Assembly: GCA_015062385.1 (NCBI GenBank)
Contig: SUUT01000002.1
Location: 465 to 64,464 of the forward strand
Reading direction: 5' to 3'
DNA: 64,000 bases
Source: Alphaproteobacteria bacterium
GTDB taxonomy: Bacteria > Pseudomonadota > Alphaproteobacteria > CAAHEQ01 > UBA3637
Shown here: positions 8,772 through 52,559 of the stretch, in pieces
Numbering within the stretch: the stretch's first letter is position 1
How the letters are laid out: every line of letters starts with the position of its first letter
Notes under the pieces: model-generated
What the model was told of the DNA's origin: nothing
Database searches by the model: none
The model's input: the letters and a program-made list of their open reading frames with translations, nothing else
Program-made: the position numbers and the translations under genes

Positions 8772-8921
8772 ATTCCCATCCTTTCAGTTAATTTTTTTGT
8801 ATAATACCCATTTTTTAAGATTTTGTCAAATATTTTTTAATAAAAATGTAGGTCTTTATAAGATTGATAAAGAATGATTTTTATTAATTGTTTTAAGTGG
8901 AATTCAGGATGTTTGTGCAGT

Positions 8922-9699
8922 TGGTTGCGGGGGTGGGATTTGGAAATTCCCAAAATGATGAACATTTTGGGTCCCTTTCAGCTCGTAGGGCTTACATGTC
9001 GCAAGCTCGTGTTTGCCAACTATCGCTTGAACCGTCACGACCTCCTTGTCGGTCGTGAGGTTAATCCCGACCCCCATAAATAAAAAAAACACCCTTTCGG
9101 GTGCCTTTTTAATTTTGGTTGCGGGGGTGGAATTTGTAAATTCCCAAAATGACAAGCATTTTGGGTCCCTTTCAGCCCGTAAGGCTCACACATCGCAAGC
9201 TCGTGTTTGCCAACTATCGCTTGAACCGTCACGACCTCCTTGTCGGTCGTGAGGTTAATCTCGACCCCCATAAATAAAAAAAACACCCTTTCGGGTGCCT
9301 TTTTAATTTTGGTTGCGGGGGTGGGATTTGGAAATTCCCAAAATGATGAACATTTTGGGTCCCTTTCAGCTCGTAAGGCTCACACGTCGCAAGCTCGTGT
9401 TTGCCAACTATCGCTTGAACCGTCACGACCTCCTTGTCGGTCGTGAGGTTAATCCCGACCCCCATAAATAAAAAAAAACACCCTTTCGGGTGTCTTTTTA
9501 ATTTTGGTTGCGGGGGTGGGATTTGGAAATTCCCAAAATGATGAACATTTTGGGTCCCTTTCAGCCCGTAAGGCTCACACGTCACAAGCTCGTGTTCGCC
9601 AACTATCGCTTGAACCGTCACGACCTCCTTGTCGGTCGTGAGGTTAATCCCGCCCCCCATAAATAAAAAAAAACACCCTTTCGGGTGCCTTTTTAATTT
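8922..9699. repeat. Four tandem 194-195 bp structured units 3' of the initiator tRNA; each contains tRNA-derived segments and a terminator
   Basis: Units are 8922-9115, 9116-9309, 9310-9504 and 9505-9699. Each begins with tggttgcgggggtgg(g/a)atttg, the complement of the tRNA's last 21 nt. Each contains hairpins cccaaaatg/cattttggg and cacgacc/ggtcgtg and a sense-orientation T-arm-like ggtcgtgaggttaatccc(g)accccc. Each ends with A8-9/caccc-tttc-gggtg/T-run. Confidence 0.95.
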
Positions 9700-9777
9700 T
9701 GGTTGCGGGGGTGGGATTTGAACCTCACGACCTCCAGGTTATGAGCCTGGCAAGCTACCGGACTGCTCTACCCCGCG
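9700..9777 (-). tRNA. Initiator-type tRNA-Met (anticodon CAU), CCA encoded
   Basis: The reverse complement is CGCGGGG...CTCATAA...CCCCGCAACCA. It has a C1:A72 mismatch and an A11:U24 pair, both initiator hallmarks. Length is 78 nt, with an apparent extra A in the 5' strand of the T stem (GTGAGG vs CCCAC). Confidence 0.8.
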
Positions 9778-10885: not shown

Positions 10886-11512
10886 TTAGTTGTTTGTTCT
10901 GTTATTTTCCCGTAAGAAATCAGTTAAATTTAAATGATAAGAAGTTATCTGTTGCGGTGTGAATGGTGTGCTTTGTTCCGATATCTTTTTGAAGATTTCT
11001 TGTAAAAGATTAAATCTATTGAATGATGATGTTGTTGCTCTTGGATTTAATGAACAAAGAAATTTGTTTTCACCTGAAATTTGTACCAGATAGTGTTTGT
11101 CAAATATTATAAAAGACGGTATTTCTTTTCCTCCTTCTAAATCCAATAAACGAACGCTTGAAGCATAGGGTAATTCCGAGATTAACGGATGTGTTTCATT
11201 GAAATGTTCGTCTGTTTTAAACGGCATGGCTTGTGTCAGTTTTTCGTTGATTAAAACATCTTTTGTCACAATAAGAGACAAATTATTCATTTTTGTCGGC
11301 AAATATTTTTGAAAACATTCTAAATACGGATATATTTGGTCAAAATCGGCTTTGTTTAAAAACATTTTTACTTGATTACTTTGCTGTGTCAGTAAAAAAC
11401 ACATCAGTAATATACAGTTGTCATCGTATGAAATCGGAAATAGATCCTTATAATTTTGTTTAATGGCCTCTTGGTATGTTTTTATAATTTCGGTATCCTT
11501 CTTTGTTGACAT
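10886..11512 (-). CDS. Hypothetical protein, translationally coupled to the upstream Cys-rich gene
   Basis: The ATG lies 1 nt after the TAA of 11514..13520 (minus strand: ...AAATAATATGTCA). No recognisable motifs. Confidence 0.5.
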   Translation of the reverse strand: MSTKKDTEIIKTYQEAIKQNYKDLFPISYDDNCILLMCFLLTQQSNQVKMFLNKADFDQIYPYLECFQKYLPTKMNNLSLIVTKDVLINEKLTQAMPFKTDEHFNETHPLISELPYASSVRLLDLEGGKEIPSFIIFDKHYLVQISGENKFLCSLNPRATTSSFNRFNLLQEIFKKISEQSTPFTPQQITSYHLNLTDFLRENNRTNN

Positions 11513-11513
11513 A

Positions 11514-13520
11514 TTATTTTCTCACAGCTTTAAAAATACAAACGATAATGACGATTAATATTGTTAATGGGACAAGAATGATTAGTGCCGGCAGAATGAA
11601 AAAGCCAAAAAACATACTTGCCGAATATGAAAATTCAGACCACCATTTTTTTCTTTTTTGTGCCGAGATTTCTCGTTCAATGTTTCTTTTCCCGATTTTA
11701 GATGTTTCAACACCACTGAATTTAGTGTATGTTGCATCAATAACTGTTCTGTTAGGACATAATGTTGAAAGAGCATATCTATCATCAATCGGAATAATTG
11801 TTGGGTCATCGCAAGGGCGACATGTTCCTTTGAACGGAAATTGTCCTTTCGGGCAAGCACTGCATACGTCATCAATTAAATGCATATCCGGACACAGTGT
11901 TTCACAATCTGCCGGATTTAATGGATAGAAATATCCCATGTCATTTTTATTTTTGTGGAAATAAACATCTTGGTGCTGATAAAAACCACAGGATGTACAA
12001 ACGGGTTTTTTATACCATTTTTCAACAATCGGTTTGCTTGGTGTACATTTCGGTATAGAATAATCTGTTGCAATCATCCGAACGATTTGTCTGTTTTCAA
12101 ATTTATCTTGTGTTTCTTTATCTACCGGAACAGCTTTATCTGTTGTTACCGAATAACAGGTATAGTCCGTTGATTGTAAAGGTCTCTCAGCCGGGCATTC
12201 TTTTAATACGGAGTATGTTTTGTCGTCCATAGAAACAATTTGACGGTTTTCATATAAATTAGGCGTATTAGGAAGAACTTCAACGGGATGAATGTATGTT
12301 GCGGGTAGACAAAAACCTGAAATACTCATTAATGGCTTATCATCGGTACAATTCAAAACAGATTCATAACGGTACCCGTTTTTAATAATTTGACGATTAG
12401 GGAAAATATTTTTAGTATTTTTGTTGACTTCAATTTGTTGTGGTGTATCTGCGGGATAACAATCTCCGTCAACTGAACGTAACGGTTTATCTGGTGGACA
12501 TTTTAAATAAGAATAAATATAATCGTCATCTTTCACGATTTCTCGGTCGTTAAGTGTGTTGACGGCTGTTGGATGTAGCCATATCTTTTTTTCATCTGCC
12601 GAATGACATTTACCCCATTCATCCCTGATAGGTAATTCAGGCGGACATTTTAAAACAGAATAGTAATTTCTCCCGTATAAGAAAATAATTTCCCGATTGG
12701 GGAATCTGTTTTGCGTATGATCTTGTACTTGAACAAAATTTTCGGTGTCGGCAGAATGACATTTTTTTGTGTTGTCCATTAAGGGTTTGTCATCAGGACA
12801 TCTTAATGAAATATAATTTAAAGATGAATAATTACGAAACAAAGTTCTTGATGGACATGGATTTTCCTTATTTTCTACATATATTGTCTTGTTGCTGTCA
12901 CAAGCGAAACAATCAAATTTTTTGTTTTCAGCTAATTGACCGAAAATAGGTTTTTCAGGGGGACATATGAATTGAGATATTGTATTTCCATATTGATTAA
13001 CAGTATTTTTACGATAAGGACACACATCGGGGGATATATCGGGGGCTAATGTAATTTCTGCTGTTGTATTGCATGAATAACATTTTCCGAAATGAAGATC
13101 TCGTAACGGTTTTTCGGATGGACATTTGAGAGCCGAATAGAACATTTCATAATGTTGATAAATCGTTCTGTTCGGGCAGGGATTTATATAATCTTTTGAA
13201 ACAAATATATTTTTTTCATCATCACAATGATAACAAGTATCTTCATGATTTCTTATTGGTTTTTCAGAGGGACATTTTTTTAAAACAGTACCCCATCCGC
13301 TGCCGAAACTCACTTTTTTACGATTAGGACAAACAGTTAATACATCTACGTTGGGTTCATTACAGTTCAAGCATTGGAAAGCATAAATAATTTCGGGAGT
13401 ATCACAGGGCATACAACCTGTTAATGAAGGAATGGGTTTATCCTTTGGACAAGCAGACAAAGCCGGAACGGAAAAAATAAGTCCGGATAAAAGTGATAAG
13501 AAACTGATTTTAAAAAACAT
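11514..13520 (-). CDS. Cysteine-rich repeat surface protein with signal peptide and C-terminal membrane anchor
   Basis: Signal peptide MFFKISFLSLLSGLIFSVPALSA. About 11 units of ~50 aa follow, of the form CP(x)(E/D)KP(I/L)...C..(C/A)D...(C)PNR.I....Y..LK. C-terminal TM helix FFGFFILPALIILVPLTILIVIIVCIF. Confidence 0.8.
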   Translation of the reverse strand: MFFKISFLSLLSGLIFSVPALSACPKDKPIPSLTGCMPCDTPEIIYAFQCLNCNEPNVDVLTVCPNRKKVSFGSGWGTVLKKCPSEKPIRNHEDTCYHCDDEKNIFVSKDYINPCPNRTIYQHYEMFYSALKCPSEKPLRDLHFGKCYSCNTTAEITLAPDISPDVCPYRKNTVNQYGNTISQFICPPEKPIFGQLAENKKFDCFACDSNKTIYVENKENPCPSRTLFRNYSSLNYISLRCPDDKPLMDNTKKCHSADTENFVQVQDHTQNRFPNREIIFLYGRNYYSVLKCPPELPIRDEWGKCHSADEKKIWLHPTAVNTLNDREIVKDDDYIYSYLKCPPDKPLRSVDGDCYPADTPQQIEVNKNTKNIFPNRQIIKNGYRYESVLNCTDDKPLMSISGFCLPATYIHPVEVLPNTPNLYENRQIVSMDDKTYSVLKECPAERPLQSTDYTCYSVTTDKAVPVDKETQDKFENRQIVRMIATDYSIPKCTPSKPIVEKWYKKPVCTSCGFYQHQDVYFHKNKNDMGYFYPLNPADCETLCPDMHLIDDVCSACPKGQFPFKGTCRPCDDPTIIPIDDRYALSTLCPNRTVIDATYTKFSGVETSKIGKRNIEREISAQKRKKWWSEFSYSASMFFGFFILPALIILVPLTILIVIIVCIFKAVRK

Positions 13521-13594: not shown

Positions 13595-13750
13595 AAAAAA
13601 AGGGACGTATAAATGCAACACTTTTTTACACATTTTTGCATTTTTTTTGATTTTAAATAAATTATTCAACTAAAACAATAATCTTTCATTTTTTTTTAAA
13701 TCTGCTTCTTCCGATTCGAATAGGAAAAAAAAGGTCCCTTTTTTTATAAT
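13595..13750 (+). promoter_or_regulatory. Conserved IR-bounded 5' module, copy A (candidate invertible promoter element), plus adjacent TATAAT
   Basis: Perfect 12-bp inverted repeat: aaaaaaagggac (13595-13606) and gtcccttttttt (13734-13745). TATAAT lies at 13745-13750. The module is homologous to 33845-33989 and 52371-52518. Confidence 0.6.
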
Positions 13751-13784
13751 GCTCTTGTATGCAACTTTATTGTGAGAGGGGAAA

Positions 13785-14948
13785 ATGAAATTTTTTAAAT
13801 CAAATGAAAACGGGCGTTCAATGCTGGAAATACTGGGTGTATTGGCTGTTATAGGGGTGTTGAGTATAGCCGGCATCAGCGGTTATAAATATGGGATAAC
13901 AAAATATCAGGTCAATGAGTTAATTTATGATATGAATATATTGGCACAGGATATACGCATCTATTTAGAAAAATCAGAGTATGAATTACCCGAAAATTTA
14001 ACACAAGTTCAATCACGAGTTGGTCAGATGTTAGAAGCTCGTTTATTGGAAAATGATTATTTTGAAATTGCTTTAAATAGTTTACCGCAATCGCTGTGTA
14101 AGGGATTATTAACATCCGGATGGACTTTGCCGATAGAAATTTATGTCGGCACGCAAAAATACAATGGGCAAAATTTATGTATATCAGAAACATCTCCTCG
14201 TTTTAGTTTTGTTTTTGCACCGTTTGAAACAAATTCTACGGATGGGATTTTGCCGTCTATACCGAAAAATGACCGGTGTGAGGCAGACAAGGGATGTTCA
14301 CAATGTGAATCTTGTAAAAATAATATTTGTGTTGTAACAAAACCATTAAAAATCGGTAATAACTGTTATGCCTGTGATACACGGGAAACAGTGCGAGCTA
14401 ATCAAGCACAATGTGATGCCTGTCCCAATCGGATATACACGAAAAGTATGTGGATTGAATATTGTTTGTTACCTGAGGATGTTGATGATTGTAGTGGAAA
14501 ACAGGGTTCAGCTTGTGATTTAGCGGATGGAAAAGAATATAAAGGCATGTGTATGAGTGGCAAGTGTGTAGATTTAGGAGTTTGTCCAAGTGGTGTGACC
14601 GGTGAAATGGCGAAAAATTGGTGTGCAACACAAGGAGGAACAGCCAGTGTTGCCGAATTATCGGCTTTGGCATCATCTATAACGGTAACTGCGGAAACAA
14701 CAAAATGTAAGTCATCTTCTACTTATTTAACTTATGCAACAAATCCGGTTTGTCCGTCAGAAGATGAATTATCTTTATATGCCGGAAAGGCAAGTCAGAC
14801 TACTTGTGGTAGTGGAGCCATCTGGACGGCAGAAACTGATAAAAGATATCCGGATTATTTTCAAGTCAATTTATCTAATGGAGATATTTTAAATTATAAT
14901 TATTATGTTTACACAGCAAAAGCATTTTGTAAAAACTTTTTGCCATAA
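13785..14948 (+). CDS. Modular type IV pilin-like protein with a Cys-rich, lectin-like C-terminal module (387 aa)
   Basis: Prepilin-type leader MKFFKSNENG|RSMLEILGVLAVIGVLSIAG with Glu at +5. The ~150-aa pilin-like module has a Cys pair (LCKGLL...NLCIS). The C-terminal part is Cys-rich, with CDACPNR and a NWCATQGG motif. Confidence 0.75.
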   Translation: MKFFKSNENGRSMLEILGVLAVIGVLSIAGISGYKYGITKYQVNELIYDMNILAQDIRIYLEKSEYELPENLTQVQSRVGQMLEARLLENDYFEIALNSLPQSLCKGLLTSGWTLPIEIYVGTQKYNGQNLCISETSPRFSFVFAPFETNSTDGILPSIPKNDRCEADKGCSQCESCKNNICVVTKPLKIGNNCYACDTRETVRANQAQCDACPNRIYTKSMWIEYCLLPEDVDDCSGKQGSACDLADGKEYKGMCMSGKCVDLGVCPSGVTGEMAKNWCATQGGTASVAELSALASSITVTAETTKCKSSSTYLTYATNPVCPSEDELSLYAGKASQTTCGSGAIWTAETDKRYPDYFQVNLSNGDILNYNYYVYTAKAFCKNFLP

Positions 14949-15493: not shown

Positions 15494-18400
15494 TTATTCA
15501 TTTTGATTATCTTGATTGTGTTGCTGTTGTTTTAATCTGAGATAGAAATCGGATATCGAACCGGAGTTTCTTTTTTTATAATCTTCATACATTTTTTTAG
15601 TTATTATGTCTGTTTTATAATAGTCAAAAACAGGCAAGACATTGTTTTTATAAATTAATCTCAAATGTTTTAAAAATTTAAGGTAGTTCGGATTTGTTTT
15701 GATTTCCTTTTGTTGTCCTAAATCGTTTAACATCTGATAAAATTCATTTTCTCGAATGATAAAGGAATCAGCACCTTTTACTTTCTTTTCAAATAGAACT
15801 TCATCATCGGTTATGGTAATTTTGTACCATGTTCTGCCGGATTTTGCAATGATTTGATTGTCTTGACAAAGCGTTGCCGGAATGGAAAAGTTTTCCTGTG
15901 CCGGAATTTTAGTTTTATCACAGTATTTATTCATGTACATCATTTGCTGTGCATAATAGTGATAAACGTCTTGAATGGATGGGTATGAAGAGGCTGCTTG
16001 TGGATATAAGTTATCGCTATTTACAAAATCAGTGTAAATTTTTATTAATTTTTGTCCTAATTCAGTGGCTTGATCTTCATTTTTCAGCCATTCATTTAAC
16101 ATATTCAAGATGTATTTAGGCGGTAAAATTGTTTTTGTTTTTAACAGTAAATCTTGAACAACAAATTTTGGACGTTTCTCATCTAATGAGATTTGATAAA
16201 CAAATTTTCCTCTTTTTTCATATAATACATTATCGGCACACAAAACGGGTGGTATATCAAAAGATATAATATCTTCTCCTTGAAAATAGTTGGGTTTGCC
16301 CATTTTTATTTGTTGATGTCTTAAATATGTTTTATATAAATAATTAAAGTGGGGTTTTTGCTCGCTTTCAATGTAGAAATTATCCGTTAAAAATACTCCT
16401 CGGATTTCAGAACATATTTCGGGGCGAATTGTATCTGATATTGTTCCTGTATAAAGCAATCTCGGTGTTTCAAATTTAATAGGGGATAAAATATCATTTA
16501 ATATTTCTATTGAATCGATATCATCTTCTTCATTGTTTTGTTGTATAATCGGAAGAATTCGGTTGTGTTTTCTTCCCCAAGAAGCAATCCTAACCACCGG
16601 TTGTCTTTTGCTGGCTGTTGTTTGAATGGGCGTTGTTGGTATAGGTTGTTGAACCGTTTTTTCGGTTTGAACAATTGTTTCTTCTTGTTGAATAATAGGT
16701 TTTTCGGATACAGCATCAGGCTGATTAATCGGAATATCTTCTTTATGTACAATGGATTCTTGCATTGGAACAGACTGTTCTTCGGATGAATCAAGAGCGA
16801 CTTTAACAGGAGTTGTCAATTCATCATTTGAAATAATCGGATTTTTAACCGGAAGATCTTCTTTTCTTTGCAAGTCCGTTGTTTTTTCTGTTATTTGTAT
16901 TAATTCTGATGTATGTTGAGTGGTTGTATCAAAAATCAACGGTAAATTTAAAGTTGTTAATTGCATTAAATAATATTCATCATAAGATTGTTCTAAATCA
17001 GATAAAATATCATTTAATTCAGTACGGGACATCGATTCAATCGTATTGTTGTATAGTTTTTCAAAAGTGATCGTGCTTGACAAATCAATTTTGTAGTATA
17101 TACCATTTTTACGGGCATAAATACAATTATCGCCACAATGAATTGCCGGTATATCAACAGTATTGTTTTTGCCTGTTAGAATTTGAGAAAATAAAGGTAA
17201 TTCACTATATACAGGCGGAACATTTTTGTGAATAAATTCATTGAGTAATTTAACGGATTTTGATTCATAATAAGGTGATGGTTTAAACAATTTTGATTTT
17301 TGCGGACGAGCTTTTCCGATATAGGTATGCGTTCTGTAAAAGGCATTTTTTAATGTACTGATATTTATCTTTTTCAAATATCTATATATTTGATTTTTGG
17401 CAACATCCTGTAATATCCGATGAAATTCTTCTGCCGTCATATCTCGAATAACGCCGTTTTCCAAAACATCAAATGTCGGTGTTTCGGAGATGGTTATTCG
17501 GTAATAATTATTGTTATATTTTGCACAGAGCAAATTACCACTGCAAATATGTGTAATAATATCTTCTTCGGGTTCTATATGTTGTAATTGTGCTGATAAT
17601 TTTTGTTCTTCTTCAATTTGCTCAAAACGAGGGAATGTATAAATCGGATTTTTACGATTGTTTTTCTTTGCAAAAAATCCTTTGTATAAATTGGGTAATA
17701 TTCGTAATATTTTTTGACTTAATTCCGGATATGGTTTTAATGCTTCCGTTAAAATAGTTTTGACGTCTTCATACGGAATATGCCGTTGCTGTTTATTTAA
17801 AATATTACGAACGGAAAAGAATACATCACCGGAACGCAATGAAATAATATAATGATAAATCCCTTTTTTATAGTGAATCCGGTCGTCATTTGCCCAAACA
17901 GCCGGCATATCAAACGCATGATTTTCTTCATCTTTTAAATCAGGATTGTTGTTTTGAATAGCTCGTTTTAATGTTTCAATCCGAATTTGAGCATCAAAAT
18001 TAAAAGAATTCAGATTGTATTGATAGAATTCTGCTACTGCTGAATGACTGATATGTGTTGGGAATAAAGCCTTTTTTAATTCCTCAATATCATCATTTTC
18101 AAACATTTTGGGTTGATATTCGTACGGATTAAAATCATTTTTTTGTAATTCGCTCAAAATTTGGCGACTGCGTGTTTCCCGATTGGGTACTGTATAAGGT
18201 GTGGGTAAAATAATGTTTTCTGCTGTCCGGTTGAATTGTTCGGCAAAAAGAGACTGTTCCTTAAATGCTTTTTTTAAGTGTCTCATACTGATTTTATGTT
18301 GTATTTTACGTTCGTAAATGCCATTTAAAATCAGGTTAAATTCGTCTGCTGTTATTGAGCGGATTTGATTGTTTTCCAATGCTTCAAACGTTATCGGTTC

Positions 18401-21400
18401 TTTTATTTTGATTTTGTAATAAATTTGATTGTATCGGGCATAAATGATATTTCCGGCACATAAGCAGGGTAAAATAGTATCAGTTGGGATAGTCCCGTTT
18501 AATTGTGCCGTTAAATTGTCAAATTCTATTATCTGATCAAACCGGGGATAATCGGATTTTTGTGTTTTATATCGTTCGGGGCTAATCTGATATTTTTGAT
18601 ATAATTTATTCAGCATTTCAGATATTAGGCGGGTATCCGGATTATTTGCATCAAAATTATCGGTAATAAGTGTATTTAAATTTTCCACTTGGAAAAGAAT
18701 GGCTGTACCTGTTGCTTTTTTAAATTTAGAAAATGTCACATTTTTTTCATCTAACGAAAAAACATAATGATATTGATTGTCTAATGCATGTACTTTTCCA
18801 TCACTGCATAAAGTAGGGGGTAATATAATTTCATTTTCATCTTTTTGTGCAATTTTTTGCTTTAAAATCAAACTTTTTTGCAAAGTTAAAAAATCAGGAA
18901 AAGCAAATTCATCTTCAAAAAACGGTGTTGTTTCCTGCACGATATTTGTATCGTTTTTTGCTGTGTTTTTTATTGGGTTTAACGAACCGAAGATATTTTC
19001 GGTTTCATGTGTGCCTGCCTGTATTCCTGTTTCTTCGGATAATTGAACAATGTATTGTTGGATAGACGTTTGTTCTTGCTGATTGCTTACGAATGAATTA
19101 TTTGTTGCCGTATTGTCATACAAAACATTCAGAGGACGTTTATTTAGACCTAAATTATTTAATTTATAGCTTTTTATTGAGCGGAATAAATCGTTTATGA
19201 TTTTGTTTAATTCTGATTTTGTCATTCGCCGAATAATTCCGTTTTCCCAAGCTTCAAATACAGGGGATTCTTTATAGCGAAGTTTATAGAAAACATTATT
19301 GTATCGAGCCAAAATGGTGTTGTTTTCACATAAAACAGGCAAAATATCGCTTTGGGTATCTTGATTATTGAGTTCCAGTTGTTTTTCGGCTAATAAGAGA
19401 GCTTGTTTTAAAGATGGTTGTAAATGTTTGCTTTCCGGAGAAATAAAGTGTTGCGACATATAAGCTGTTGCAAATCGTGCCAATACAGTGTGTCCTGTTT
19501 CGATGTCGTTTTTAAAGATATCTAATACTGTTTTTTTTATAATAAACGGTGACATAATTCTATATGCTCTTGTTTTGATATCTTTTTCCAAAAATGAAGG
19601 GCGTTTTAAGTCTAAAGAAATATAGTACAGTTTTCGACCGTCTTTCCAATGTAAAAAATTATCCGGTGTAATAATCGGTTCATAAGAATATAATTGATTT
19701 TTTTCATCAAACAAATTAGGATTATGTGTTTCAATCGCATGCGTTAATGATTGAATTTGTTGATGATAGTAGGGATTGATTTGTAAAGTGTTTTCTTCTA
19801 AAAATGAATTTAAATTAAGAGATGAACCATAATTTATCGTTATTTTCGATTGTTGTTCAGTTAAAATTTCTTGTCGATTTTGAGCGGGAAAGCGTGTTTC
19901 AAATTCATATTCAAGGGAATGCTTGTTATTAAAATCAAGCAATTCAATAATTGGTGTATATTGAATTGATTCCGGAATTGTAAACACTGGTGTTTGTTGT
20001 TTGTTAATTTGTTGGAAATACTTGCTCTTTAACCCGTTTGCTTTTGTTTCTTGTAAAACCGGTTGATGATAAGTTCCTAATAATTCCTGATTGATTTTTT
20101 GAATTTCATCGGCATTCATCGGACGGATTTGACCGTTTTGTAATGCGGTAAATGTGAGGGTGGGGGATAATGTTATTTTGTATAAAACATTTCCTTTTTT
20201 TGCAATAATAATATTACCGGCACAAATGGTTGCCGAAATATCTGATAATTTTTCAGATGTTTGATTCAAATAATTAAATACTAAAACTTGTTTTGCCGTA
20301 GGCCAAGAACGCTTGTTGTTTCTGGCTCGAACTGATTGTGTCGTAAGTGATTTATACGCTTTTTGAAATTGCCGGATAATACTTTTTTTGTTTGATACAT
20401 TTGGAACAATGGTATTTAAAACTGTTTCAAAATCTGCAACAGGTATTTTTTTATTTGTACCATCTGCTACTTCTACTCGGTAATAAGGCATATTTAAGTC
20501 AAGGGAAATAATATATTTTTTTCCGTTTGCCGATGTATATAAGCAGTCATTTTGAGCAATATATGTTGTATTTATCGGTTGATAAATCTTTGTTGCGAGA
20601 TGGTGTTTTAAAGCTGTCTGTTCAATTTTTTCCTGATAACGGTTATCCGGTCGCAATTTGATGCTTTCTTGCCAAAAAGCGAGTGCTTGTCGAATTTCAT
20701 CTTCCTGTGTTTGTGGTGCAGAATATTGAATCGTACTTTCTGCTATTGTTTGGTGGGTTAAAGACGGAATTGTTTCTTCTTTTGAATGCGTAACCATTGA
20801 GTCTGTTAAAGCTGATTTAATAATTTGTTCAGATGAAGGTGTGGTTGCTTTATTGGTTTCAGAAGAGACTGTTTGTAATGGTACGGTTTTTAAAGCTGCG
20901 TGCAAATCGTTTGCAAAAGATAATGTTTGTTGGTTTGTTTGTTCTTGTTGCTCAAAAAATTTCTGTTGGGGGGATACGGTCTTTCCGTATCGTTCCAAAA
21001 GGGCATTTGCACCTGCTTTCATTAAATAAACGGCATTATATCGTTCGCTTAAATACCGACTGATAAATCGGACTTCATTTAATGTCATTTGACGGATTTT
21101 TCCATCTTGGTAAACACCGTATGACGGGGCTCCGTCTAATGTGATTTTATAAAAGGCATTTCCGTATTTTGCCATAATAATTTGATTAGCACAAATAATC
21201 GGATTGATATTTTGCAAAACTGTTTTTTCGGCAAGTAAACTTTGGTATTTTGCCGTTTCGATTACTTGTTGAACGGAAGGAAGTTGTTTTGCCTCTCGTT
21301 TTCTTTTATGCTTAATTTTGGAATAATATAATTTCTCAAAAAATTGTATGTATTTTTGGCACAGATGTGAATCCGGTATTACTTTTGTCAGAATTTGTTG

Positions 21401-23887
21401 AACTTCCACCCATTTAAGTGTTTGTTCGGTTCTGTTTTCCGTTTTCTTAATAAAAAACGGATGATCTTCATCTAATGAAAAAATATACGTTGTGTTGTTT
21501 TCTTTGTAGTAAAGACGATTCCTGCGGTCAATAATCGGATTTCTTATTTTAACAGAACCGGCATTTTCCGGGTATTTTTGTGCGTATTCGGTTTTTAGTT
21601 GATTAAGTTCATCTTCAGCTTTAAAGGAGGGTAAAATAAAATTCGGACCGAAAAAGAAATCTGCCGTTTCAAGTTCTGTTGTCATTGGTACTGTTGAATC
21701 GGGTGTTTCAAGTAAATTTGTTACTTTTATATATGGTCCTCTTGTGGATTTCGGTTGCTGTTTGATTCGAATGGTTGGATTGATTTCTTCAAAAGAAATA
21801 ATTTTTTGAGCCAAAGAGTATTGTGAAATATCTGTTTGTTCGGGCAGGGCAGTTTCATCTGTGTGTTCGGCAGAGATTTGTTGATTTGATGCAAAAAATT
21901 TGTTCTTTAATGCTTCGGCATTCACTTCTGCCAATTGTGCATAATTATATTGTCTGCGTAAATCTTTTAAAAAGATTTTAAACTCATTAACCGTCATTGG
22001 AGCACGTTTTCCGTTTTTGTATGTTTCAAATCGGAATGGTTGTTTTGTTGATACTTTATAATAAACATCATCATATCGGGCCAAAAGGATATTTCCGGCA
22101 CAAATAACCGGTAAAATGTCGGTTATCGGATATTTTTTGAATAAATTGATATAATAATGACGTTCCAAAACCTGTTTAACAGACGGATATGTACTTTTTG
22201 AAACTTTTGTCGGCAGTGTGGATGTATGAACCCTTTGTAAAATGGCTAAAACCTGTTCTTGTGTTTCCGATGATTCCGATTGGATAAGCGGTAAAATTAC
22301 TTCTTTGATTTCAGCAAAAGAAAGTGTTCTTTGTTTGCCTGTTATATTATCCCGAATAAAAGAGGTACTTTGTCGGGGATTTAATGAAATGATAATTTGA
22401 TAATTATTTTTTTGAAAGCTAAGCAGTTGATTGCTGAATATGTTTACAGAATGATCAACAAAGAGTTTTGAGTTAACATCCTTGATGTTTTTAATGCCAT
22501 TTTTGAGAGCATTTTTATATCTGTTGATTTCTGAAAAGGTATAAAATTCAGGAAGTTGACCTTTTGCATTATAAAAATCCAATACGTCCGATGTGATGGC
22601 AGAGAGGTAATTTTGTTGTGGTAATTGGTCGGTTTGTTCATCTTTGTAAAGTGACATGAATTCTGAAATGGATGGTAAAACCGAACGATTATCTTCAATC
22701 GGTTGTTTTGTTTCTTGGCTGTCTGTTGTTTGATTCGTACTAACAAGTGGTGTGTGAATAACGGCAGGTTGAATTAAATCTTTTTGCTTGTTTTCATCTG
22801 ATTTTGTCTCGGATTTTGTCACCGAAGTTATGTTATTCGAACGCATGTTTATTTCTTGTTGCGTGTTTTCTTCTGTTACTTCAAGACCATCAGCTTTTTT
22901 AAATTGAATAAAAGGTACATAATTTGATGATTTTTTGCGAGGTCGTCTGACCGGATTTGAAATCAAATCTGTTGTTTCTTGGCTTTGCCATTTTCGGTAC
23001 TCATTGCTTTTTTCTTTTGTATAAGAAATTTCATCTGTTTTTGCATCTTCCGATAAAATGATAGGTTCTGTTTCAATTAAAACAACATCAGCCGATATGG
23101 GTTTGATCGTTTCTGATATTATTGTTTGAGTCTCTTCAATAGAGGCAGATACTTGCGGTTGTTGAGTTGTTTGGGGTGGTGTGTCTATATTTTCTTTTCC
23201 CTGTTGATCGGTTGATTTATTCTTTTTCTTTTTGGGGCCGATTAAATCAAGTGTTCCGACTTCTCGCCATTTTTTTAATTGATCCATCATTTCTTGTGAA
23301 GAACGATTATGTGTAAAATTATTGTGTTGCGTAAACGATGCGGGACGTGGAGCTTGTGTTTTTTCTTGTCCTTGTGCCGATGCCGGTAATTGTGTCGATT
23401 CTAACATTGGAGAATGCCGTAAAATCGGTTTTGTTTTTTTTGAATCAGGTTGTGTTTGGGATTCTTTATTTGTTTTTAAGGCATTTTTATCAGCCCTGAT
23501 TTCTTTTTTTACAACGCTTTGAAAATTAGGACTTTCACAAATAATTTGGCAGGCTTTTTCATAAATAAATGGGGCTTGATTGTTGTCGATTGCTGGTTTG
23601 TTTTTGTTGAATTCTCTAAAAAATTGCGGAAAGTAAGAGAGTTTATCTTCAATATCTTCATTCATACTACAATAATTGTTCATAATACTGAAAATATCTT
23701 GTTCCGTCATCGGTTCTATTTTTGTTGGGGTCAAAACAAAAAAGGCTGGATGAGATGTGCTGAAAATTATCCGAAAGAGGCGATTGTTTTGTTTTGCAAA
23801 CAAAAAAGTTCTTTTGCCTTTTTTATAAACAATCGGATCAAAAGCTTCTAAGTTCTCAATTTGTTGAATAGCTGACATTTCATTCAT
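15494..23887 (-). CDS. Giant repeat protein (2797 aa) built from an unrecognised ~55-aa domain
   Basis: There is one uninterrupted ORF of 8.4 kb. At least a dozen diverged copies of two alternating module types are present, for example ICAGNIIIAKKGNVLYKITLSPTLTFTALQNGQIRPMNADEIQKI and NGKKYIISLDLNMPYYRVEVADGTNKKIPVADFETVL. Q/T/S/P-rich linkers separate them, and there is no N-terminal signal peptide. Confidence 0.8.
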   Translation of the reverse strand: MNEMSAIQQIENLEAFDPIVYKKGKRTFLFAKQNNRLFRIIFSTSHPAFFVLTPTKIEPMTEQDIFSIMNNYCSMNEDIEDKLSYFPQFFREFNKNKPAIDNNQAPFIYEKACQIICESPNFQSVVKKEIRADKNALKTNKESQTQPDSKKTKPILRHSPMLESTQLPASAQGQEKTQAPRPASFTQHNNFTHNRSSQEMMDQLKKWREVGTLDLIGPKKKKNKSTDQQGKENIDTPPQTTQQPQVSASIEETQTIISETIKPISADVVLIETEPIILSEDAKTDEISYTKEKSNEYRKWQSQETTDLISNPVRRPRKKSSNYVPFIQFKKADGLEVTEENTQQEINMRSNNITSVTKSETKSDENKQKDLIQPAVIHTPLVSTNQTTDSQETKQPIEDNRSVLPSISEFMSLYKDEQTDQLPQQNYLSAITSDVLDFYNAKGQLPEFYTFSEINRYKNALKNGIKNIKDVNSKLFVDHSVNIFSNQLLSFQKNNYQIIISLNPRQSTSFIRDNITGKQRTLSFAEIKEVILPLIQSESSETQEQVLAILQRVHTSTLPTKVSKSTYPSVKQVLERHYYINLFKKYPITDILPVICAGNILLARYDDVYYKVSTKQPFRFETYKNGKRAPMTVNEFKIFLKDLRRQYNYAQLAEVNAEALKNKFFASNQQISAEHTDETALPEQTDISQYSLAQKIISFEEINPTIRIKQQPKSTRGPYIKVTNLLETPDSTVPMTTELETADFFFGPNFILPSFKAEDELNQLKTEYAQKYPENAGSVKIRNPIIDRRNRLYYKENNTTYIFSLDEDHPFFIKKTENRTEQTLKWVEVQQILTKVIPDSHLCQKYIQFFEKLYYSKIKHKRKREAKQLPSVQQVIETAKYQSLLAEKTVLQNINPIICANQIIMAKYGNAFYKITLDGAPSYGVYQDGKIRQMTLNEVRFISRYLSERYNAVYLMKAGANALLERYGKTVSPQQKFFEQQEQTNQQTLSFANDLHAALKTVPLQTVSSETNKATTPSSEQIIKSALTDSMVTHSKEETIPSLTHQTIAESTIQYSAPQTQEDEIRQALAFWQESIKLRPDNRYQEKIEQTALKHHLATKIYQPINTTYIAQNDCLYTSANGKKYIISLDLNMPYYRVEVADGTNKKIPVADFETVLNTIVPNVSNKKSIIRQFQKAYKSLTTQSVRARNNKRSWPTAKQVLVFNYLNQTSEKLSDISATICAGNIIIAKKGNVLYKITLSPTLTFTALQNGQIRPMNADEIQKINQELLGTYHQPVLQETKANGLKSKYFQQINKQQTPVFTIPESIQYTPIIELLDFNNKHSLEYEFETRFPAQNRQEILTEQQSKITINYGSSLNLNSFLEENTLQINPYYHQQIQSLTHAIETHNPNLFDEKNQLYSYEPIITPDNFLHWKDGRKLYYISLDLKRPSFLEKDIKTRAYRIMSPFIIKKTVLDIFKNDIETGHTVLARFATAYMSQHFISPESKHLQPSLKQALLLAEKQLELNNQDTQSDILPVLCENNTILARYNNVFYKLRYKESPVFEAWENGIIRRMTKSELNKIINDLFRSIKSYKLNNLGLNKRPLNVLYDNTATNNSFVSNQQEQTSIQQYIVQLSEETGIQAGTHETENIFGSLNPIKNTAKNDTNIVQETTPFFEDEFAFPDFLTLQKSLILKQKIAQKDENEIILPPTLCSDGKVHALDNQYHYVFSLDEKNVTFSKFKKATGTAILFQVENLNTLITDNFDANNPDTRLISEMLNKLYQKYQISPERYKTQKSDYPRFDQIIEFDNLTAQLNGTIPTDTILPCLCAGNIIYARYNQIYYKIKIKEPITFEALENNQIRSITADEFNLILNGIYERKIQHKISMRHLKKAFKEQSLFAEQFNRTAENIILPTPYTVPNRETRSRQILSELQKNDFNPYEYQPKMFENDDIEELKKALFPTHISHSAVAEFYQYNLNSFNFDAQIRIETLKRAIQNNNPDLKDEENHAFDMPAVWANDDRIHYKKGIYHYIISLRSGDVFFSVRNILNKQQRHIPYEDVKTILTEALKPYPELSQKILRILPNLYKGFFAKKNNRKNPIYTFPRFEQIEEEQKLSAQLQHIEPEEDIITHICSGNLLCAKYNNNYYRITISETPTFDVLENGVIRDMTAEEFHRILQDVAKNQIYRYLKKINISTLKNAFYRTHTYIGKARPQKSKLFKPSPYYESKSVKLLNEFIHKNVPPVYSELPLFSQILTGKNNTVDIPAIHCGDNCIYARKNGIYYKIDLSSTITFEKLYNNTIESMSRTELNDILSDLEQSYDEYYLMQLTTLNLPLIFDTTTQHTSELIQITEKTTDLQRKEDLPVKNPIISNDELTTPVKVALDSSEEQSVPMQESIVHKEDIPINQPDAVSEKPIIQQEETIVQTEKTVQQPIPTTPIQTTASKRQPVVRIASWGRKHNRILPIIQQNNEEDDIDSIEILNDILSPIKFETPRLLYTGTISDTIRPEICSEIRGVFLTDNFYIESEQKPHFNYLYKTYLRHQQIKMGKPNYFQGEDIISFDIPPVLCADNVLYEKRGKFVYQISLDEKRPKFVVQDLLLKTKTILPPKYILNMLNEWLKNEDQATELGQKLIKIYTDFVNSDNLYPQAASSYPSIQDVYHYYAQQMMYMNKYCDKTKIPAQENFSIPATLCQDNQIIAKSGRTWYKITITDDEVLFEKKVKGADSFIIRENEFYQMLNDLGQQKEIKTNPNYLKFLKHLRLIYKNNVLPVFDYYKTDIITKKMYEDYKKRNSGSISDFYLRLKQQQHNQDNQNE

Positions 23888-30951: not shown

Positions 30952-32043
<1,092 letters not shown>

Positions 32044-33394: not shown

Positions 33395-33844
33395 ATGTAT
33401 GTGATTTAATGAATCCGATAGCAGTATGATATTTTTTTTATAAAAACGGATGATATTTAAATTTTTTCGTCTGTTTTTTTGTTTTGTTGTGTTTTTATTG
33501 ATTTTTTTTAATAAAATTGGTAATATAAGTTATTCAATTAGAAGCATTTCATCAAAAAGCCCTTCAAACAGGTTGTTTTAGAGAAGGATTGGGTACAATT
33601 GTTCAACTGGAAAAATTGATTGAAGCACTTCAACGGGAACAGCAACGCCAACCGATTCTTATTATTTCGGCACAAGATAAAAACCAACAAACAGTTTCTG
33701 AAAATTCCAATAAAAATCGTATTCATATAAAAGATTGATTCATTTATCAGATATTTATTTCAGAACCGAAGACTATTTGAAGTTCTCCGGTTTTGTTATT
33801 TATATGTTTTAAAAGAGAGGCTTGTTTGTGTAAATATCAGTAAT

Positions 33845-33997
33845 AAAAGGGACGTATAATTGCAACAATTTTTTTCACTTTTTAGAATTTTTTTTAATTT
33901 TAGATAAATTACTCAAGTAAAACAATAATCTTTTATTTTCTCAAAAATCGGATTTTCCCGATTCGAAGCGGGAAAAAAAGGTCCCTTTTATTACACT
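33845..33997 (+). promoter_or_regulatory. Conserved IR-bounded 5' module, copy B
   Basis: The core IR is aaaagggac (33845-33853) and gtccctttt (33981-33989). It extends to 14 bp (gtaataaaagggac, 33840-33853 / gtcccttttattac, 33981-33994). The -10-like TACACT lies at 33992-33997. Confidence 0.55.
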
Positions 33998-34037: not shown

Positions 34038-36806
34038 ATGAAAATCAAATTCAATGAACTTGGTCGGAGTATGCTGGAAACGTTGTGCGTATTAGCTGTT
34101 ATCGGGGTATTAAGTGTTTCTGGTATTAGTGGATATCAATATGCAATGACTAAATATCAAACGAATGATATTATTAATTCTGTTAATATGCGTTCTTCGG
34201 ATATTTGGCATCGATATCAGCAAATTCCTCTTCCCAATGAAGAAACAAATGCTTTTCCGGAGTGGGAAACAAAAACATCAACCGGTTTTCCGATTATGAT
34301 AACATCTCATCCTGATGTAGCATTTCGCATTATTGTTGATGAAGTGCCGGAGCGGATTTGTAAAGATGTTTTAAATATGCATTTAAATGATTATGTTAAA
34401 GGGTTAAAGTTTGTTCAGGTTAATGATGTTAAATATATTAACAGTAATAACATTTGTTTATCCGATAGATTAAACAAAATTGTGTTTACTTCTTTTTTAA
34501 ATGTTGATGGTGGTTATAATCCAAACACAAATGGTATGAATAATGCTGAACCGTGTGTAGAAGATGCTGATTGTCATTCAAAATGTGCTGAAAAAATATG
34601 TAATTCCGAAACAATGATTTGTGATGATCAGTGTCCGGAATGGAATAAACCGGTACGCTTGGAAGAAACATGCGAATGTGTAGAGTGTGTTAAGAATAGT
34701 GATTGTAAATTTAAAGGAGATGGATATATTTGCAATGAGTTGGAATATAAATGCAGTAAACTGGAAAAACAATGCAAATCGAATCAATTCCGTACTCAAA
34801 ACGGAGCTTGTATTGATTGTGATAATGGCAGTAATTTTATTGTTTTGAAAGATGGAGAACCTTATCCGTTTACAAGTGATACGGTTGATGGTTATACAAT
34901 GTGTCAACAATGTGCTAATTCGGGAACTGAACGGCAATATGGAGCATTGATTGATGATGAAACAAAGGCGTATTGCTCGTTTATGTGTACTGCCGGATAT
35001 TCATATCAATCATTAAAAGACGGATGTGTATCTTGTGCCGATGAAACACCAAAATTCATTGCAAAAGACGATGTTTCAAAAAAACAATGTACATCTTGTC
35101 CTAACCATGCTTGGTATAGTGAGTATTGGTTTGATTATTATAATAAAGCAGTTCTTTGTCAAAAAAAGGTTGTTTGTGGAGATGATGAATTTGTGACAAC
35201 TGTGCGTGCTTCACATTATACCTGTGCAAAATGCAATTCTTCACGGAGTGCAAATGTTGGTGTTGGACATTATACAGCCGGTTATTCTGATAGTAAATTT
35301 TATCAATATCGTATTGATAAATGTAATAGTTGTCCGGAAAGGGATAGTGACGGAAATTATTCGGCTCGTTGGTTTGTTGGTAATGGAAACAGTGGTTCGT
35401 GTGCTCCTAAATGTGAACAACCTATCACAGGCAGTGAAGCTGACACAATTTGTAAAACAAATCCGTCAAGTGAAAAGTGTAAAAGAAAATGGCAAAATGC
35501 ATCAGGAACTTGTTTTGATTGCGATGCGGAAACAACATCCAATAATATAAAATATGGGACATCAGGAGCACAAGCAACCGATGCGGAATTAAAAAGACTT
35601 TGTTTGGCATGCGGACGAGAAGTGCAGGGCAATTATTGTATTTTACCCAAAACGAAAGATATTTGCGGAGTCGGCAAATTTTTAGGAAAAGATGGAAACT
35701 GTTATTTATGTAATAATGAAACACATGTTGAAATCGAATCAGATGCATTGTCCGGTTGTTTGAGTAATTGTAAAAAAAGTTCTGCAACAGCAACTGATTA
35801 TGTTTTAAACGGAACAGTTGATACTCGTCGTGTTTATACAATGAATGATCTTAATTATTGTGCTTTAAAGTGTTCTGACAATCAAATAAATCAAAGTGAC
35901 GGAAAATGTGTATCTTGTGGTAATCAAAATTCATTAAATACCATTACACCGGCGGTTGTGGGTGATTGCAATCTTTGTCAGTATAGAGAAATTTATGGCA
36001 ATGTTTGTGCCGTAAAAACATGTCCAACTTCATATTACAAGAATCATTCGGGGACTTGTAAGAAATGTTCCGAGCAAAATCCCGAACAGGAAACTTGGTC
36101 GAATGAATTAATACTTGGGGATATTAATTCATGCAATACCTGTGGTAACAGAATAGCTATTAAACGATATAATACAGATACAGGATTTTGGTGTACATAT
36201 ATTAATCCGGGGCAAATTGGTCTATGCAACAGTAAAGGAAATCAAGCACTTCCGGTAACAATGAATGAAACTCTTGTTGAAGCTGCTCAACCATATATAA
36301 ATTCACAACATGACGGTGAAAAATTTAGAGATCATTATGGATATTGTCGGAATTGTACGGATAGTGCTGATTATATTGCTGATGAAGAACAATGTTTATC
36401 ATGTAAAAATAGAAGATGGAGCAACAATACATGTATGAAAGGTCTGTGTGAAGAAAAATTACAGTTTTTATCCGGTTCATCTTGCTTGTCATGCTCTAAT
36501 GTTAATAAACCAATTGATCCGAGTAAGGATAACTTATGTTCCTCTTGTGAAAATAGACGTCAATTAGAAATCGGCACACCGGATACAACTTGGTCAGGAC
36601 TTTGTGTGGAAGAGTGTACGGGGACACAATGGCAGGATATTGATGGAAATTGCTTGTTCTGTTCTGAAGGAGGGGATAGAGCAATTGGAACAGATACAGA
36701 ATCTCGTCGTTTATGTAATGATGTTTGTAAAGATTATCGTCAGGAGGAAGCAATTTATTCGGCAGATGGCAAAACGGTAATCGGATATAAATGTGTTGAA
36801 AAATAG
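34038..36806 (+). CDS. Modular type IV pilin-like protein with a very large Cys-rich C-terminal region (922 aa)
   Basis: Leader MKIKFNELG|RSMLETLCVLAVIGVLSVSG. A pilin-like module with Cys pair ICKDVL...NICLS. About 750 aa follow with many C-x2-C pairs (CTSCPNH, CNSCPER, CNTCGNR, CLSCKNR, CSSCENR). Confidence 0.75.
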   Translation: MKIKFNELGRSMLETLCVLAVIGVLSVSGISGYQYAMTKYQTNDIINSVNMRSSDIWHRYQQIPLPNEETNAFPEWETKTSTGFPIMITSHPDVAFRIIVDEVPERICKDVLNMHLNDYVKGLKFVQVNDVKYINSNNICLSDRLNKIVFTSFLNVDGGYNPNTNGMNNAEPCVEDADCHSKCAEKICNSETMICDDQCPEWNKPVRLEETCECVECVKNSDCKFKGDGYICNELEYKCSKLEKQCKSNQFRTQNGACIDCDNGSNFIVLKDGEPYPFTSDTVDGYTMCQQCANSGTERQYGALIDDETKAYCSFMCTAGYSYQSLKDGCVSCADETPKFIAKDDVSKKQCTSCPNHAWYSEYWFDYYNKAVLCQKKVVCGDDEFVTTVRASHYTCAKCNSSRSANVGVGHYTAGYSDSKFYQYRIDKCNSCPERDSDGNYSARWFVGNGNSGSCAPKCEQPITGSEADTICKTNPSSEKCKRKWQNASGTCFDCDAETTSNNIKYGTSGAQATDAELKRLCLACGREVQGNYCILPKTKDICGVGKFLGKDGNCYLCNNETHVEIESDALSGCLSNCKKSSATATDYVLNGTVDTRRVYTMNDLNYCALKCSDNQINQSDGKCVSCGNQNSLNTITPAVVGDCNLCQYREIYGNVCAVKTCPTSYYKNHSGTCKKCSEQNPEQETWSNELILGDINSCNTCGNRIAIKRYNTDTGFWCTYINPGQIGLCNSKGNQALPVTMNETLVEAAQPYINSQHDGEKFRDHYGYCRNCTDSADYIADEEQCLSCKNRRWSNNTCMKGLCEEKLQFLSGSSCLSCSNVNKPIDPSKDNLCSSCENRRQLEIGTPDTTWSGLCVEECTGTQWQDIDGNCLFCSEGGDRAIGTDTESRRLCNDVCKDYRQEEAIYSADGKTVIGYKCVEK

Positions 36807-51476: not shown

Positions 51477-51960
51477 CTTATGTCATATTTTTTACAAATT
51501 CCGTTGTTTTGTCCGAAATCTTGTTACGTAATAGCCCTATTGTTCATGTTTGTTTTATGCAAGATGGCGGACTAAATTCGGTATAACAATGTAGAGTGAA
51601 ACCGTTACTTTATATCCTTTGTATTCCCATCATCATCGTCACTTCGGACTTAATCCGGAGTAGTGTTACAATAATTGTTATTTAAAGTATGGTATAATAG
51701 CATCGGAAGCAGATGATTGTTTCAGAGTAGAACATACAGTTCGTCGTCATCTTAATTTCCGCTTCCTTTTATACTTGTCACTTGATGGGGTGTTTGTACC
51801 ATTTGTTCACGAGTGTGTACGTTAATAATTGTAAGTACAAGGAGTATTATAATACAAAACACTTTAAAGTTCAATCATTTTTTAGGTGACGTATTTAAAA
51901 ACAAACTAGATATTTATGATACAAAAACAAAGACTTATATAAAGGTTTCCAATACTTAAA

Positions 51961-52290
51961 GTGTTTATCAAAACACAAACACCGACCTCGGATTTATTAG
52001 TTGTCATTGACTTAAAGAGTGGCTATGAGCAAAAAGCCGCGGATCTTTTTTATCAAGCGGGTTTTTGCGTTTACAGAGTCGAAGGAAGTCGTGTCAAATA
52101 CTTTTTACGAGTTATCGGACAGAATGCCAAAACCGATAAAATAGATGTCAAAGGGTTGGCTCTTTCTGCCCTAAAAACACAAGAAATGCTACAATTATAC
52201 ACTCCGATAAATGGGTAGTTATTAGCGTTATTCGGTATTTAGCGGATTTAAACAAATACTTGAACAGGCAATTAATCGTTATCAAACGAT
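51961..52290 (+). pseudogene. IS110-family (DEDD) transposase remnant
   Basis: The 85-aa fragment has VVIDLKSG...YQAGFCVYRVEGSRVKYFLRVIGQNAKTDKIDVKGLA, the IS110 N-terminal domain signature with an internal deletion. A frameshifted continuation (IRYLADLNKYLNRQL) follows. No C-terminal catalytic Ser domain is present. Confidence 0.6.
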
Positions 52291-52370
52291 GACGGTTGGG
52301 GTAAAAAGAATATAGTAATAAATATAATGAACATGATAACACGAATTGTATAAAAGTATCTATCCGCAAT

Positions 52371-52523: not shown

Positions 52524-52559
52524 CATTTCATAAATGCAACTTTATGATGTGAGGAAAAT

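Follow-up and report, generated by a model that had tools for sequence, protein, structure and literature searches.

Candidate invertible split promoters upstream of pilin-like genes in uncultured ruminant-gut Alphaproteobacteria

Inverted-repeat modules before three pilin-like genes

In the 64,000-nt stretch of alphaproteobacterial DNA analysed here, referred to as the window (contig SUUT01000002.1 of assembly GCA_015062385.1, positions 465 to 64,464 of the forward strand), only three genes encode pilin-like proteins with a GRSM(L/V)E motif, and each of them is preceded by a short module bounded by inverted repeats. All three lie on the plus strand: the first (13785-14948) encodes 387 aa with a GRSMLE N-terminus and a Cys-rich C-terminal part, the second (34038-36806) 922 aa and the third (52560-54506) 648 aa. 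The original prediction, made from the sequence of the window, had taken the module before the first gene for a candidate invertible promoter, apparently lying in the OFF orientation. In this report, we document the anatomy and conservation of the modules, a natural inverted copy in a related genome and the match between the inverted layout and native promoters, and we consider it probable that each module is an invertible split-promoter on/off switch of the pilin-like gene downstream, OFF at the three loci of the window.

Module 1 is delimited by a left repeat (AAAAAAAGGGAC, 13595-13606) and a right repeat (GTCCCTTTTTTT, 13734-13745), whose arms are 100% complementary and leave 127 nt between them (13607-13733, the candidate invertible interior). 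Both arms lie where the original prediction had placed them, as do gtataaATGCAAca, directly inside the left arm, and TATAAT, at 13745-13750 on the plus strand and outside the interior. Module 2 (33840-33994) has 14-nt repeats (33840-33853 and 33981-33994, 100% complementary) around an interior at 33854-33980 (127 nt), and module 3 (52368-52518) has 12-nt repeats (52368-52379 and 52507-52518, 92% complementary) around an interior at 52380-52506 (127 nt); the hexamers corresponding to TATAAT of module 1 are TACACT (33992-33997) and TATAAT (52518-52523), respectively, again on the plus strand. Each window module is made up of a 127-bp interior and 12-14-nt inverted repeats with a GGGAC/GTCCC core. 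As had been claimed, a homologous module lies directly upstream of every pilin-like gene (3/3) at a near-constant spacing, with 47-53 nt from GTCCC to ATG, and the modules are better conserved than the coding sequences: they are 81-85% identical, compared with 55-66% for the first 137 nt after the GRSM motif and 20-31% for the second 137 nt. The left flanks of the three modules are 33-43% identical, and homology between the window copies starts at the left repeat. Three module blocks of 20-22 nt each occur three times in the window, against a chance expectation of 0.01-0.03.

A search for further copies, which the original prediction had called for, recovered ten more from assemblies of uncultured ruminant-gut Alphaproteobacteria. 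The resulting 13 full copies, found through a genome scan and through protein homologues, are W1-W3 (modules 1 to 3 of the window), L003, L004a, L004b, L005, L006, L008 and L015-L018, and the module signature is AAAAGGGAC...GTCCCTTTT. The 20-mer AAGGGACGTATAAWTGCAAC matches four contigs of one GTDB representative genome, the metagenome-assembled genome (MAG) RGIG7750 of an alphaproteobacterium from water-buffalo rectum, and genes identical to those of the window are present in JGI and ENA gut metagenome assemblies. A metagenome scan with the same 20-mer gave a single match inside the coding region of an unrelated high-GC contig, which was set aside as chance, and a scan of viral contigs gave no match to the module. 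A pilin-like gene stands behind the module in 13/13 copies, including all five of RGIG7750. The 13-copy alignment has a mean column identity of 90% and a single 1-nt gap, in L003, where the interior is 126 nt long; it is 127 nt in the other 12 copies, and TGCAAC is invariant in all 13. To judge from this alignment, the non-coding module is under strong constraint, whereas the genes diverge to random levels. The repeats take part in this conservation. Their 9-bp core AAAAGGGAC is symmetric in 13/13 copies, including one G:T pair and one compensatory pair, and 88.5% of the cells pair in register 0, compared with 42-67% in slid registers. The compensatory change is found in L018, where GGTAC...GTACC replaces GGGAC...GTCCC at mirrored positions of both arms. 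This pairing pattern indicates that repeat symmetry is maintained among the copies.

The name given to the genes needs some comment. A Pfam and NCBIfam search of the three window proteins gave no match. Their N-terminal motif, a G followed by RSM(L/V)E and then by LGVLA(V/I)IGVLS, is invariant in 38 homologues; one homologue, P0008, scored 14.8 bits against TIGR02532, under the 16.3-bit cut-off, and some others have precomputed PF05307/PF08805 (Bundlin/PilS_N) matches or are named pilin or type II secretion system (T2SS) protein in their source. Among PDB sequences, the best match (E = 0.011) is to a fimbrial protein. Residues 1-147 of the gene 3 product were modelled with AlphaFold (predicted local distance difference test, pLDDT, 84.7) as a long helix at 8-58 and a small four-stranded beta-sheet, and the top Foldseek matches of this model are type IVb pilins (3fhu and 9iuf; E = 0.06-0.13, template modelling (TM) score 0.35-0.47), with none at E <= 0.001. 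The label "pilin-like" is reasonable but not formally established.

The proposed split promoter layout and a naturally inverted copy

In the window orientation, TATAAT of module 1 has no TTG-type -35 element, and the hexamer 17 nt upstream is AGGAAA (13722-13727), in agreement with the original prediction. Across the copies in this orientation, the -35 slot reads CGGGAA, AGGGAA or AGGAAA; it is AGGAAA or CGGGAA in the three window copies, which is consistent with their having been called OFF. A -35 hexamer, TTGCAT, is present at the far end of the segment, on the minus strand (13613-13618), facing away from the gene. Inversion would bring it (ATGCAA on the plus strand) to exactly 13722-13727 and so give TTGCAT-17-TATAAT; this predicted geometry proved exact, and it is the same at loci 2 and 3, where the hexamer is a palindromic TTGCAA (33860-33865) and a bottom-strand TTGCAT (52386-52391), respectively. 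Four phased T-tracts (13622-13654), with a periodicity of 9.5-10 bp (p <= 0.004 versus shuffles), would become A-tracts just upstream of the -35 once inverted. After inversion in silico, 13/13 copies show the same succession of phased A-tracts, 3 nt, TTGCA(A/T), 17 nt and TA(T/C)A(A/C/G)T, and the signature of an ON-type junction beside a gene is ...GTTGCAWTTATACGTCCCTTTT(T/A)TTA.... Only the -35 and the A-tracts upstream of it lie within the invertible segment; the -10 is fixed outside, and the right repeat falls within the promoter spacer in the ON orientation.

At the fixed site, a TAnnnT hexamer (TATAAT, TACACT, TATAGT or TATACT) is found in 13/13 gene-proximal flanks, and none is found in the distal flanks that were checked (W1-W3, L015, L016 and the gene-less side of L004a). 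The outward-facing -35 would have no partner in the OFF state, because these distal flanks have no TAnnnT at the equivalent position, and a leftward promoter in the OFF state was rejected as a candidate since TAnnnT is missing from them at the needed spacing. Two other promoters were considered and set aside. An internal promoter directed toward the gene in the OFF orientation (TTGCAA-17/18-TAGAAT or TATATT) is found only in copies with the palindromic TTGCAA and is absent in W1 and W3; its -10-like hexamer is not conserved, and it is probably fortuitous. Sigma-54 promoters are common for pilins, and inspection of the three window modules revealed no GG-N10-GC element.

The layout obtained by inversion is that of native promoters in the window. 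The tRNA-Gln promoter reads TTGCAA-17-TATATT, as originally described, and with its upstream tract AAAAAAAAggcTTGCAA-17-TATATT; the tRNA-Met promoter reads AAAAAAggtaTTGACA-17-TATATT and the tRNA-Phe promoter AAAAAAAtgcTGGACA-17-TATAAG. These three promoters and the inverted modules have in common that an A-tract precedes the -35. A composite pattern of A5+, a TTG-type -35, 16-18 nt and TAnnnT occurs six times in the window, in every case upstream of a gene (tRNA-Met, tRNA-Gln, rpoD, prs and two others), compared with 1.7 +/- 1.6 times in shuffles, and the three window modules (3/3) gain this pattern only upon in-silico inversion. Because the ON layout is the organism's own sigma-70 promoter layout, RpoD-RNA polymerase should transcribe a gene in the ON state, and we infer promoter activity in the ON orientation from this match.

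The inverted junction that had been predicted exists in nature. In RGIG7750, the copy L004a presents TTGCAA-17 nt-TACACT before a pilin-like gene; read along the gene, the junction is GTGTTGCAA-ttatacgtcccttttat-TACACT, and after it come GGAGAGAAGG, with a ribosome-binding site, and the ATG of a gene for a 693-aa pilin-like protein. TACACT and the flank GTCCCTTTTATTACACTCTC of module 2 in the window are identical to those of this natural ON copy. A comparison of L004a with L004b, a tandem paralogous unit, showed that both outer flanks are homologous and that L004a is inverted precisely between the repeats; the interiors, which are homologous to 13607-13733 of module 1, are 35% identical when compared directly and 88% identical after in-silico inversion of a 137-bp segment. 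This shift in identity is the signature of recombination at the repeats. Both orientations thus occur within shared flanks, in a comparison of two paralogous loci of a single MAG contig rather than of cells from the same population. Nor is L004a a repeat assembly artefact, because the arms are shorter than any assembly k-mer and reads must support the path of the contig. Relative to the gene, 12/13 copies are oriented as in the window and one, L004a, is inverted; 1/5 copies in RGIG7750 is ON. On their contig, the two module-and-gene units stand in tandem downstream of groEL (L004 2610-5140, minus strand), the first ON and the second OFF.

A further comparison is offered by a more distant relative, of another species, represented by two independent assemblies. 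Its diverged module (L013 25-235; L014 1-75) has decayed repeats, AAACGTAC against GTATCTTT, and carries a complete TTGCAA-17-TACAAT fixed at the -35 slot. This module looks like a locked-ON derivative and, as such, supports the view that the -35 slot decides expression.

Our data suggest a model whereby the switch comprises 137 bp, that is, the 127-bp interior and the 5-bp GGGAC/GTCCC cores, set within inverted repeats of 9-14 bp. The promoter would be split across the right-hand recombination site, with the -10 fixed outside and TTGCA(A/T), together with UP-like phased A-tracts, at the far end of the segment. In the OFF state, AGGAAA or CGGGAA would occupy the -35 slot, and the real -35 would be directed away from the gene, into a flank without a -10; in the ON state, inversion would join the A-tracts, TTGCA(A/T) and 17 nt containing the repeat to TAnnnT. 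The inversion presumably depends on a site-specific recombinase that has its gene in another part of the genome and serves every copy in trans. The phased tracts and the strict length of 127 bp probably aid synapsis of repeats that are just 132 bp apart, plausibly by supplying the necessary bend and helical phase. Reversibility, the frequency of switching and the identity of the recombinase are presumed in this model. Permanent silencing is argued against, because the open reading frames (ORFs) behind OFF copies are intact and encode 387-922 aa.

Two further sets of repeats lie in or beside the modules. The sequence ATAAATGCAAC (ATGCAAC in W1) stands just inside the left repeat and recurs in the 5' untranslated region (5'UTR) of W1, W3, L003 and L008; in the window, the pairs are at 13609-13619 and 13763-13770 (W1) and at 52382-52392 and 52532-52542 (W3). 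They are direct repeats in the OFF orientation and would bracket the core promoter as inverted repeats in the ON orientation. Near the right end there are two conserved palindromes, AAAATCnGATTTT and CGATTCGAAGCG, which in the window orientation come shortly before the -35 slot. An inverted-repeat search delimited a conserved palindrome of the TTCCGATTCGAATAGGAA type at 13706-13729 in module 1, which is conserved as CGATTCGAAGCGGG in most copies and is possibly a protein-binding site; more generally, the right-end palindromes could be sites for the recombinase or an accessory protein. The palindrome CGATTCGAA(G/T)C, of the CGATTCGAAGCG type, carries a GANTC site in 10/13 copies (13714-13721 and 33961-33968 in the window). 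GANTC is the methylation motif of CcrM, and a gene for a CcrM-like methyltransferase is present in the window (30955-32043); a link between GANTC, CcrM and the control of orientation or expression is speculative.

Alternative explanations and the recombinase question

Several observations weigh against an inversion switch. The sole inverted copy (1/13) comes from a different genome and a different locus than the window, and L004a could owe its orientation to a rare evolutionary inversion that became fixed, and not to frequent switching. All seven other assembled places that represent the three loci of the window (L001, L002, L019, L020, L021, L023 and L024, from at least five samples) are OFF, in a survey in which near-identical places were collapsed and 2-4 contigs were read per window gene. 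A generic promoter scanner made no call at the ON junction, where TTGCAA/TACACT scores 8/12 and TTGCAT 3/6 in the first hexamer. The covariation between the arms is modest, with three pairs changed on both sides compared with 1.7 in shuffles, 25 of 500 of which reach three, and the L018 contig, which holds the compensatory change, has very low coverage. In addition, neither the 64-kb window nor the readable flanks of related loci yielded a recombinase gene. A separate observation is that the contigs L014, L018, L022, L025, L026 and L027 start at or inside the module; we set this aside as evidence of heterogeneity, because a multi-copy repeat breaks assemblies likewise and the contig starts are ambiguous.

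One explanation, which we regard as unlikely, though still credible, takes the module for a static regulatory region, conserved within a family of paralogous genes. It would have spread with these genes by duplication and been homogenised by gene conversion, the genes would be expressed as oriented, and L004a would be a one-off inversion without a regulatory cycle. On this view, the right-end palindromes, centred ~40 bp upstream of the start, could be the site of an activator that drives expression in the so-called OFF orientation, and the repeats would be an operator or a structural feature. The single orientation of 12/13 copies and of the 7/7 other assemblies of the window loci agrees with a static region, as do the position of AAAATCnGATTTT and CGATTCGAAGCG just upstream of the -35 slot, the mosaic look of the modules (L020 versus W3), which fits gene conversion, and the absence of a recombinase from the window. 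However, a static region leaves unexplained why the most invariant part of the module, TGCAAC with the phased T-tracts, mirrors the position of the -35 slot exactly, why the native promoter layout is restored only upon inversion, and why L004a is inverted precisely from repeat to repeat with both flanks kept; it also does not account for the compensatory change in both arms of L018 or for the finding that, of all the genomes compared, only the relative with decayed repeats has TTGCAA in the -35 slot. We continue to favour the invertible split promoter.

The original prediction had stated that no recombinase gene is present in the window, and this held in Pfam scans of essentially all ORFs of at least ~90 aa; the only related sequence is a degenerate fragment of the IS110/Piv family. 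The fragment (~51870-52300, plus strand) is frameshifted, ends ~70 nt left of module 3 and holds the N-terminal domain only: Pfam DEDD_Tnp_IS110 matched it with E = 1e-5 and 25.8 bits (cut-off 29) over profile positions 42-136, with no C-terminal domain. A homologue search with the fragment returned the fragment itself and no intact close homologue, and a link between it and the switch is unproven. The left flanks next to it deserve separate description. A protein identical to that of W3, behind a module 98% identical to W3, lies in L020 behind an unrelated left flank, and homology stops at 52366 of the window, at the left repeat. At this place the window has the IS110 remnant, L020 (1-1306) an HD-domain gene and L003 (1-1364) a 425-aa ORF; the three left flanks are unrelated, and the breakpoint is at exactly the left inverted repeat. 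The five differences between the modules of L020 and W3 match variants found in other copies, and this mosaic suggests gene conversion. Recombination at the left repeat could exchange flanks between loci; unrelated insertions or deletions could equally have produced the same picture.

A broader possibility, which we rate as quite doubtful, is that the modules are sites of a genome-wide system in which a trans-acting recombinase, of the Piv/IS110 type (possibly RNA-guided) or another, flips the promoter and also exchanges flanks or cassettes. It is raised because three unrelated left flanks diverge at the left repeat and because a truncated Piv remnant lies beside module 3. If true, a large family of giant pilin-like adhesins would undergo shufflon-like relocation as well as promoter inversion.

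The same flanks bear on a very improbable alternative, in which a miniature inverted-repeat transposable element (MITE), or a small cassette with terminal inverted repeats, was inserted repeatedly and in either orientation upstream of pilin-like genes. The size of ~150 bp, the AT-rich composition, the terminal inverted repeats and the multiple copies are those of a MITE, one copy is oppositely oriented, the left flanks of strains (window, L020 and L003) differ exactly at the left repeat, and an IS110-family remnant adjoins module 3. Yet 13/13 copies are tied to a pilin-like gene, with homology continuing through the proximal flank, the 5'UTR and the signal peptide; no target-site duplication or direct repeats surround the inverted repeats, and the fixed -10, which lies outside the element, is conserved together with its spacing. 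Moreover, L004a and L004b share both flanks, so that a transposon would have to have inserted again, the other way round, at exactly the same base pair.

Finally, a structured RNA (a leader, an attenuator or a small RNA) with the inverted repeat and a U-run as its terminal stem would fit the T-run after the repeat, a predicted fold that closes a 12-bp stem and z-scores of -1.9 (plus strand) and -2.1 (minus strand), but we give it hardly any credence, as these z-scores are weak and mostly due to the repeat itself, no Rfam match was obtained (within the window, the gathering score is reached by three tRNAs only), conserved helices are missing from the interior save for one small palindrome, a stem around 127 nt is not an intrinsic terminator and a terminator scanner found none on the gene strand, the unrelated left flanks hold no conserved promoter upstream of the left repeat, and the inversion in L004a would put the complementary strand into the transcript.

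The surroundings of the three loci are those of an ordinary chromosome, with lexA, alr, aspS, prs, rpoD, dnaG, the CcrM-like methylase, an N-type ATPase operon, rpsF, rplI and ppdK. Pilin-like gene 1 is adjoined by an ORF of 2797 aa (15494-23887, minus strand) with no Pfam match, and two more ORFs with no Pfam match (668 aa and 208 aa) lie on its other side (10886-13520). The window also contains two tandem arrays, one of 194 bp x 4.1 (8921-9720) and one of 172 bp x 2.5 (1058-1493), in which every unit repeats ~20 nt from the 3' end of the adjoining tRNA gene without a mismatch (tRNA-Met and tRNA-Gln, respectively); recombination of the integrase type, recurring at tRNA genes, may have left these arrays as footprints. 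The gene for the homologue P0008, from a different alphaproteobacterial species, lies behind another conserved leader (L009 5800-5965, and also L010-L012), in which GGGCGGATGT...ACATCCGCCC is followed by a T-run in a terminator-like arrangement and a second, interleaved repeat, AACCTAATG...CATTAGGTT, is present; the four assemblies are identical there.

Comparison with known inversion systems

Invertible promoters are a main route of surface variation in gut bacteria, and most characterised examples come from Bacteroidales, enterobacteria, clostridia and mollicutes. If our interpretation is true, the modules make up a family of switches at several loci of uncultured Alphaproteobacteria from the ruminant gut, and their targets are a family of large Cys-rich proteins whose N-termini are of the pilin type. 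Programs for finding invertons that demand a whole promoter between the repeats, or a minimum length of repeat or segment, could miss such switches. The family is compact and defined by sequence (13 copies, 90% identical), and it is suited to identifying the recombinase and to testing the inversion of very short segments. The taxon by itself is nothing new in this respect, since computational predictions of invertons already include Alphaproteobacteria (PMC11602134).

The closest match in function and layout is found in Mycoplasma penetrans, where, according to the account in PMC3047005, which cites Horino et al. 2009, ~30 mpl genes of the P35 lipoprotein family have invertible promoter regions with 12-bp repeats and the recombinase is MYPE2900. 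As in our modules, many paralogous surface genes each have a private short element with repeats of ~12 bp. The mpl elements are switched individually by a single tyrosine recombinase, MYPE2900, whose gene is not beside them; the host phylum and the gene family differ from those described here. The whole promoter reportedly lies inside the mpl element, whereas only the -35 and its upstream tracts lie inside our modules and the -10 is fixed outside.

In fimS, 9-bp repeats flank a promoter segment that confers ON/OFF phase variation on a fimbrial subunit gene (PMC3047005; PMC11868660). The E. coli fimS is a single locus of 314 bp with a complete promoter inside, and FimB/FimE are encoded next door. 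Its synapsis needs DNA bending within the switch, by IHF and Lrp. The modules described here are different in that the segment is 137 bp long and present at several loci, the bend is apparently intrinsic (phased A/T-tracts), and no adjacent recombinase was found.

The invertons of Bacteroides are dispersed invertible promoters for surface structures, served by one trans-acting invertase, Mpi (Coyne et al. 2003 as cited in PMC11602134; PMC11868660). As these secondary accounts portray them, they resemble our modules in belonging to a gut commensal, in having many sites and in being OFF at most loci in a consensus assembly. They differ in that a complete promoter of the Bacteroidetes type lies inside, the repeat consensus is another one and the targets are polysaccharide loci, whereas we describe a putative split promoter of the sigma-70 type in an alphaproteobacterium, with pilin-like targets.

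A type IV pilin is the object of site-specific inversion in Moraxella, by Piv, a DEDD recombinase related to the IS110/IS1111 transposases (PMC11187229). There, a 2-kb segment of pilin coding sequence, not a promoter, is inverted and C-terminal cassettes are swapped, and piv is intact and adjacent; in contrast, the fragment beside module 3 is frameshifted, falls under the Pfam cut-off and carries no evidence of action on the module. A junction promoter is formed on the circle of an IS1111-family element (PMC11187229). Such hybrid promoters of insertion sequences are alike in that an end of mobile DNA brings a -35 to the correct spacing from a resident -10, but they arise by transposition or circularisation and not by reversible inversion of a resident segment. 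From the systems compared here, we know of no described layout in which the recombination site lies within the promoter spacer. The design of the modules appears unusual: in a segment of just 137 bp, of strict length and with an apparently built-in bend, the -35 and the UP-like tracts would change orientation, and the -10 would not.

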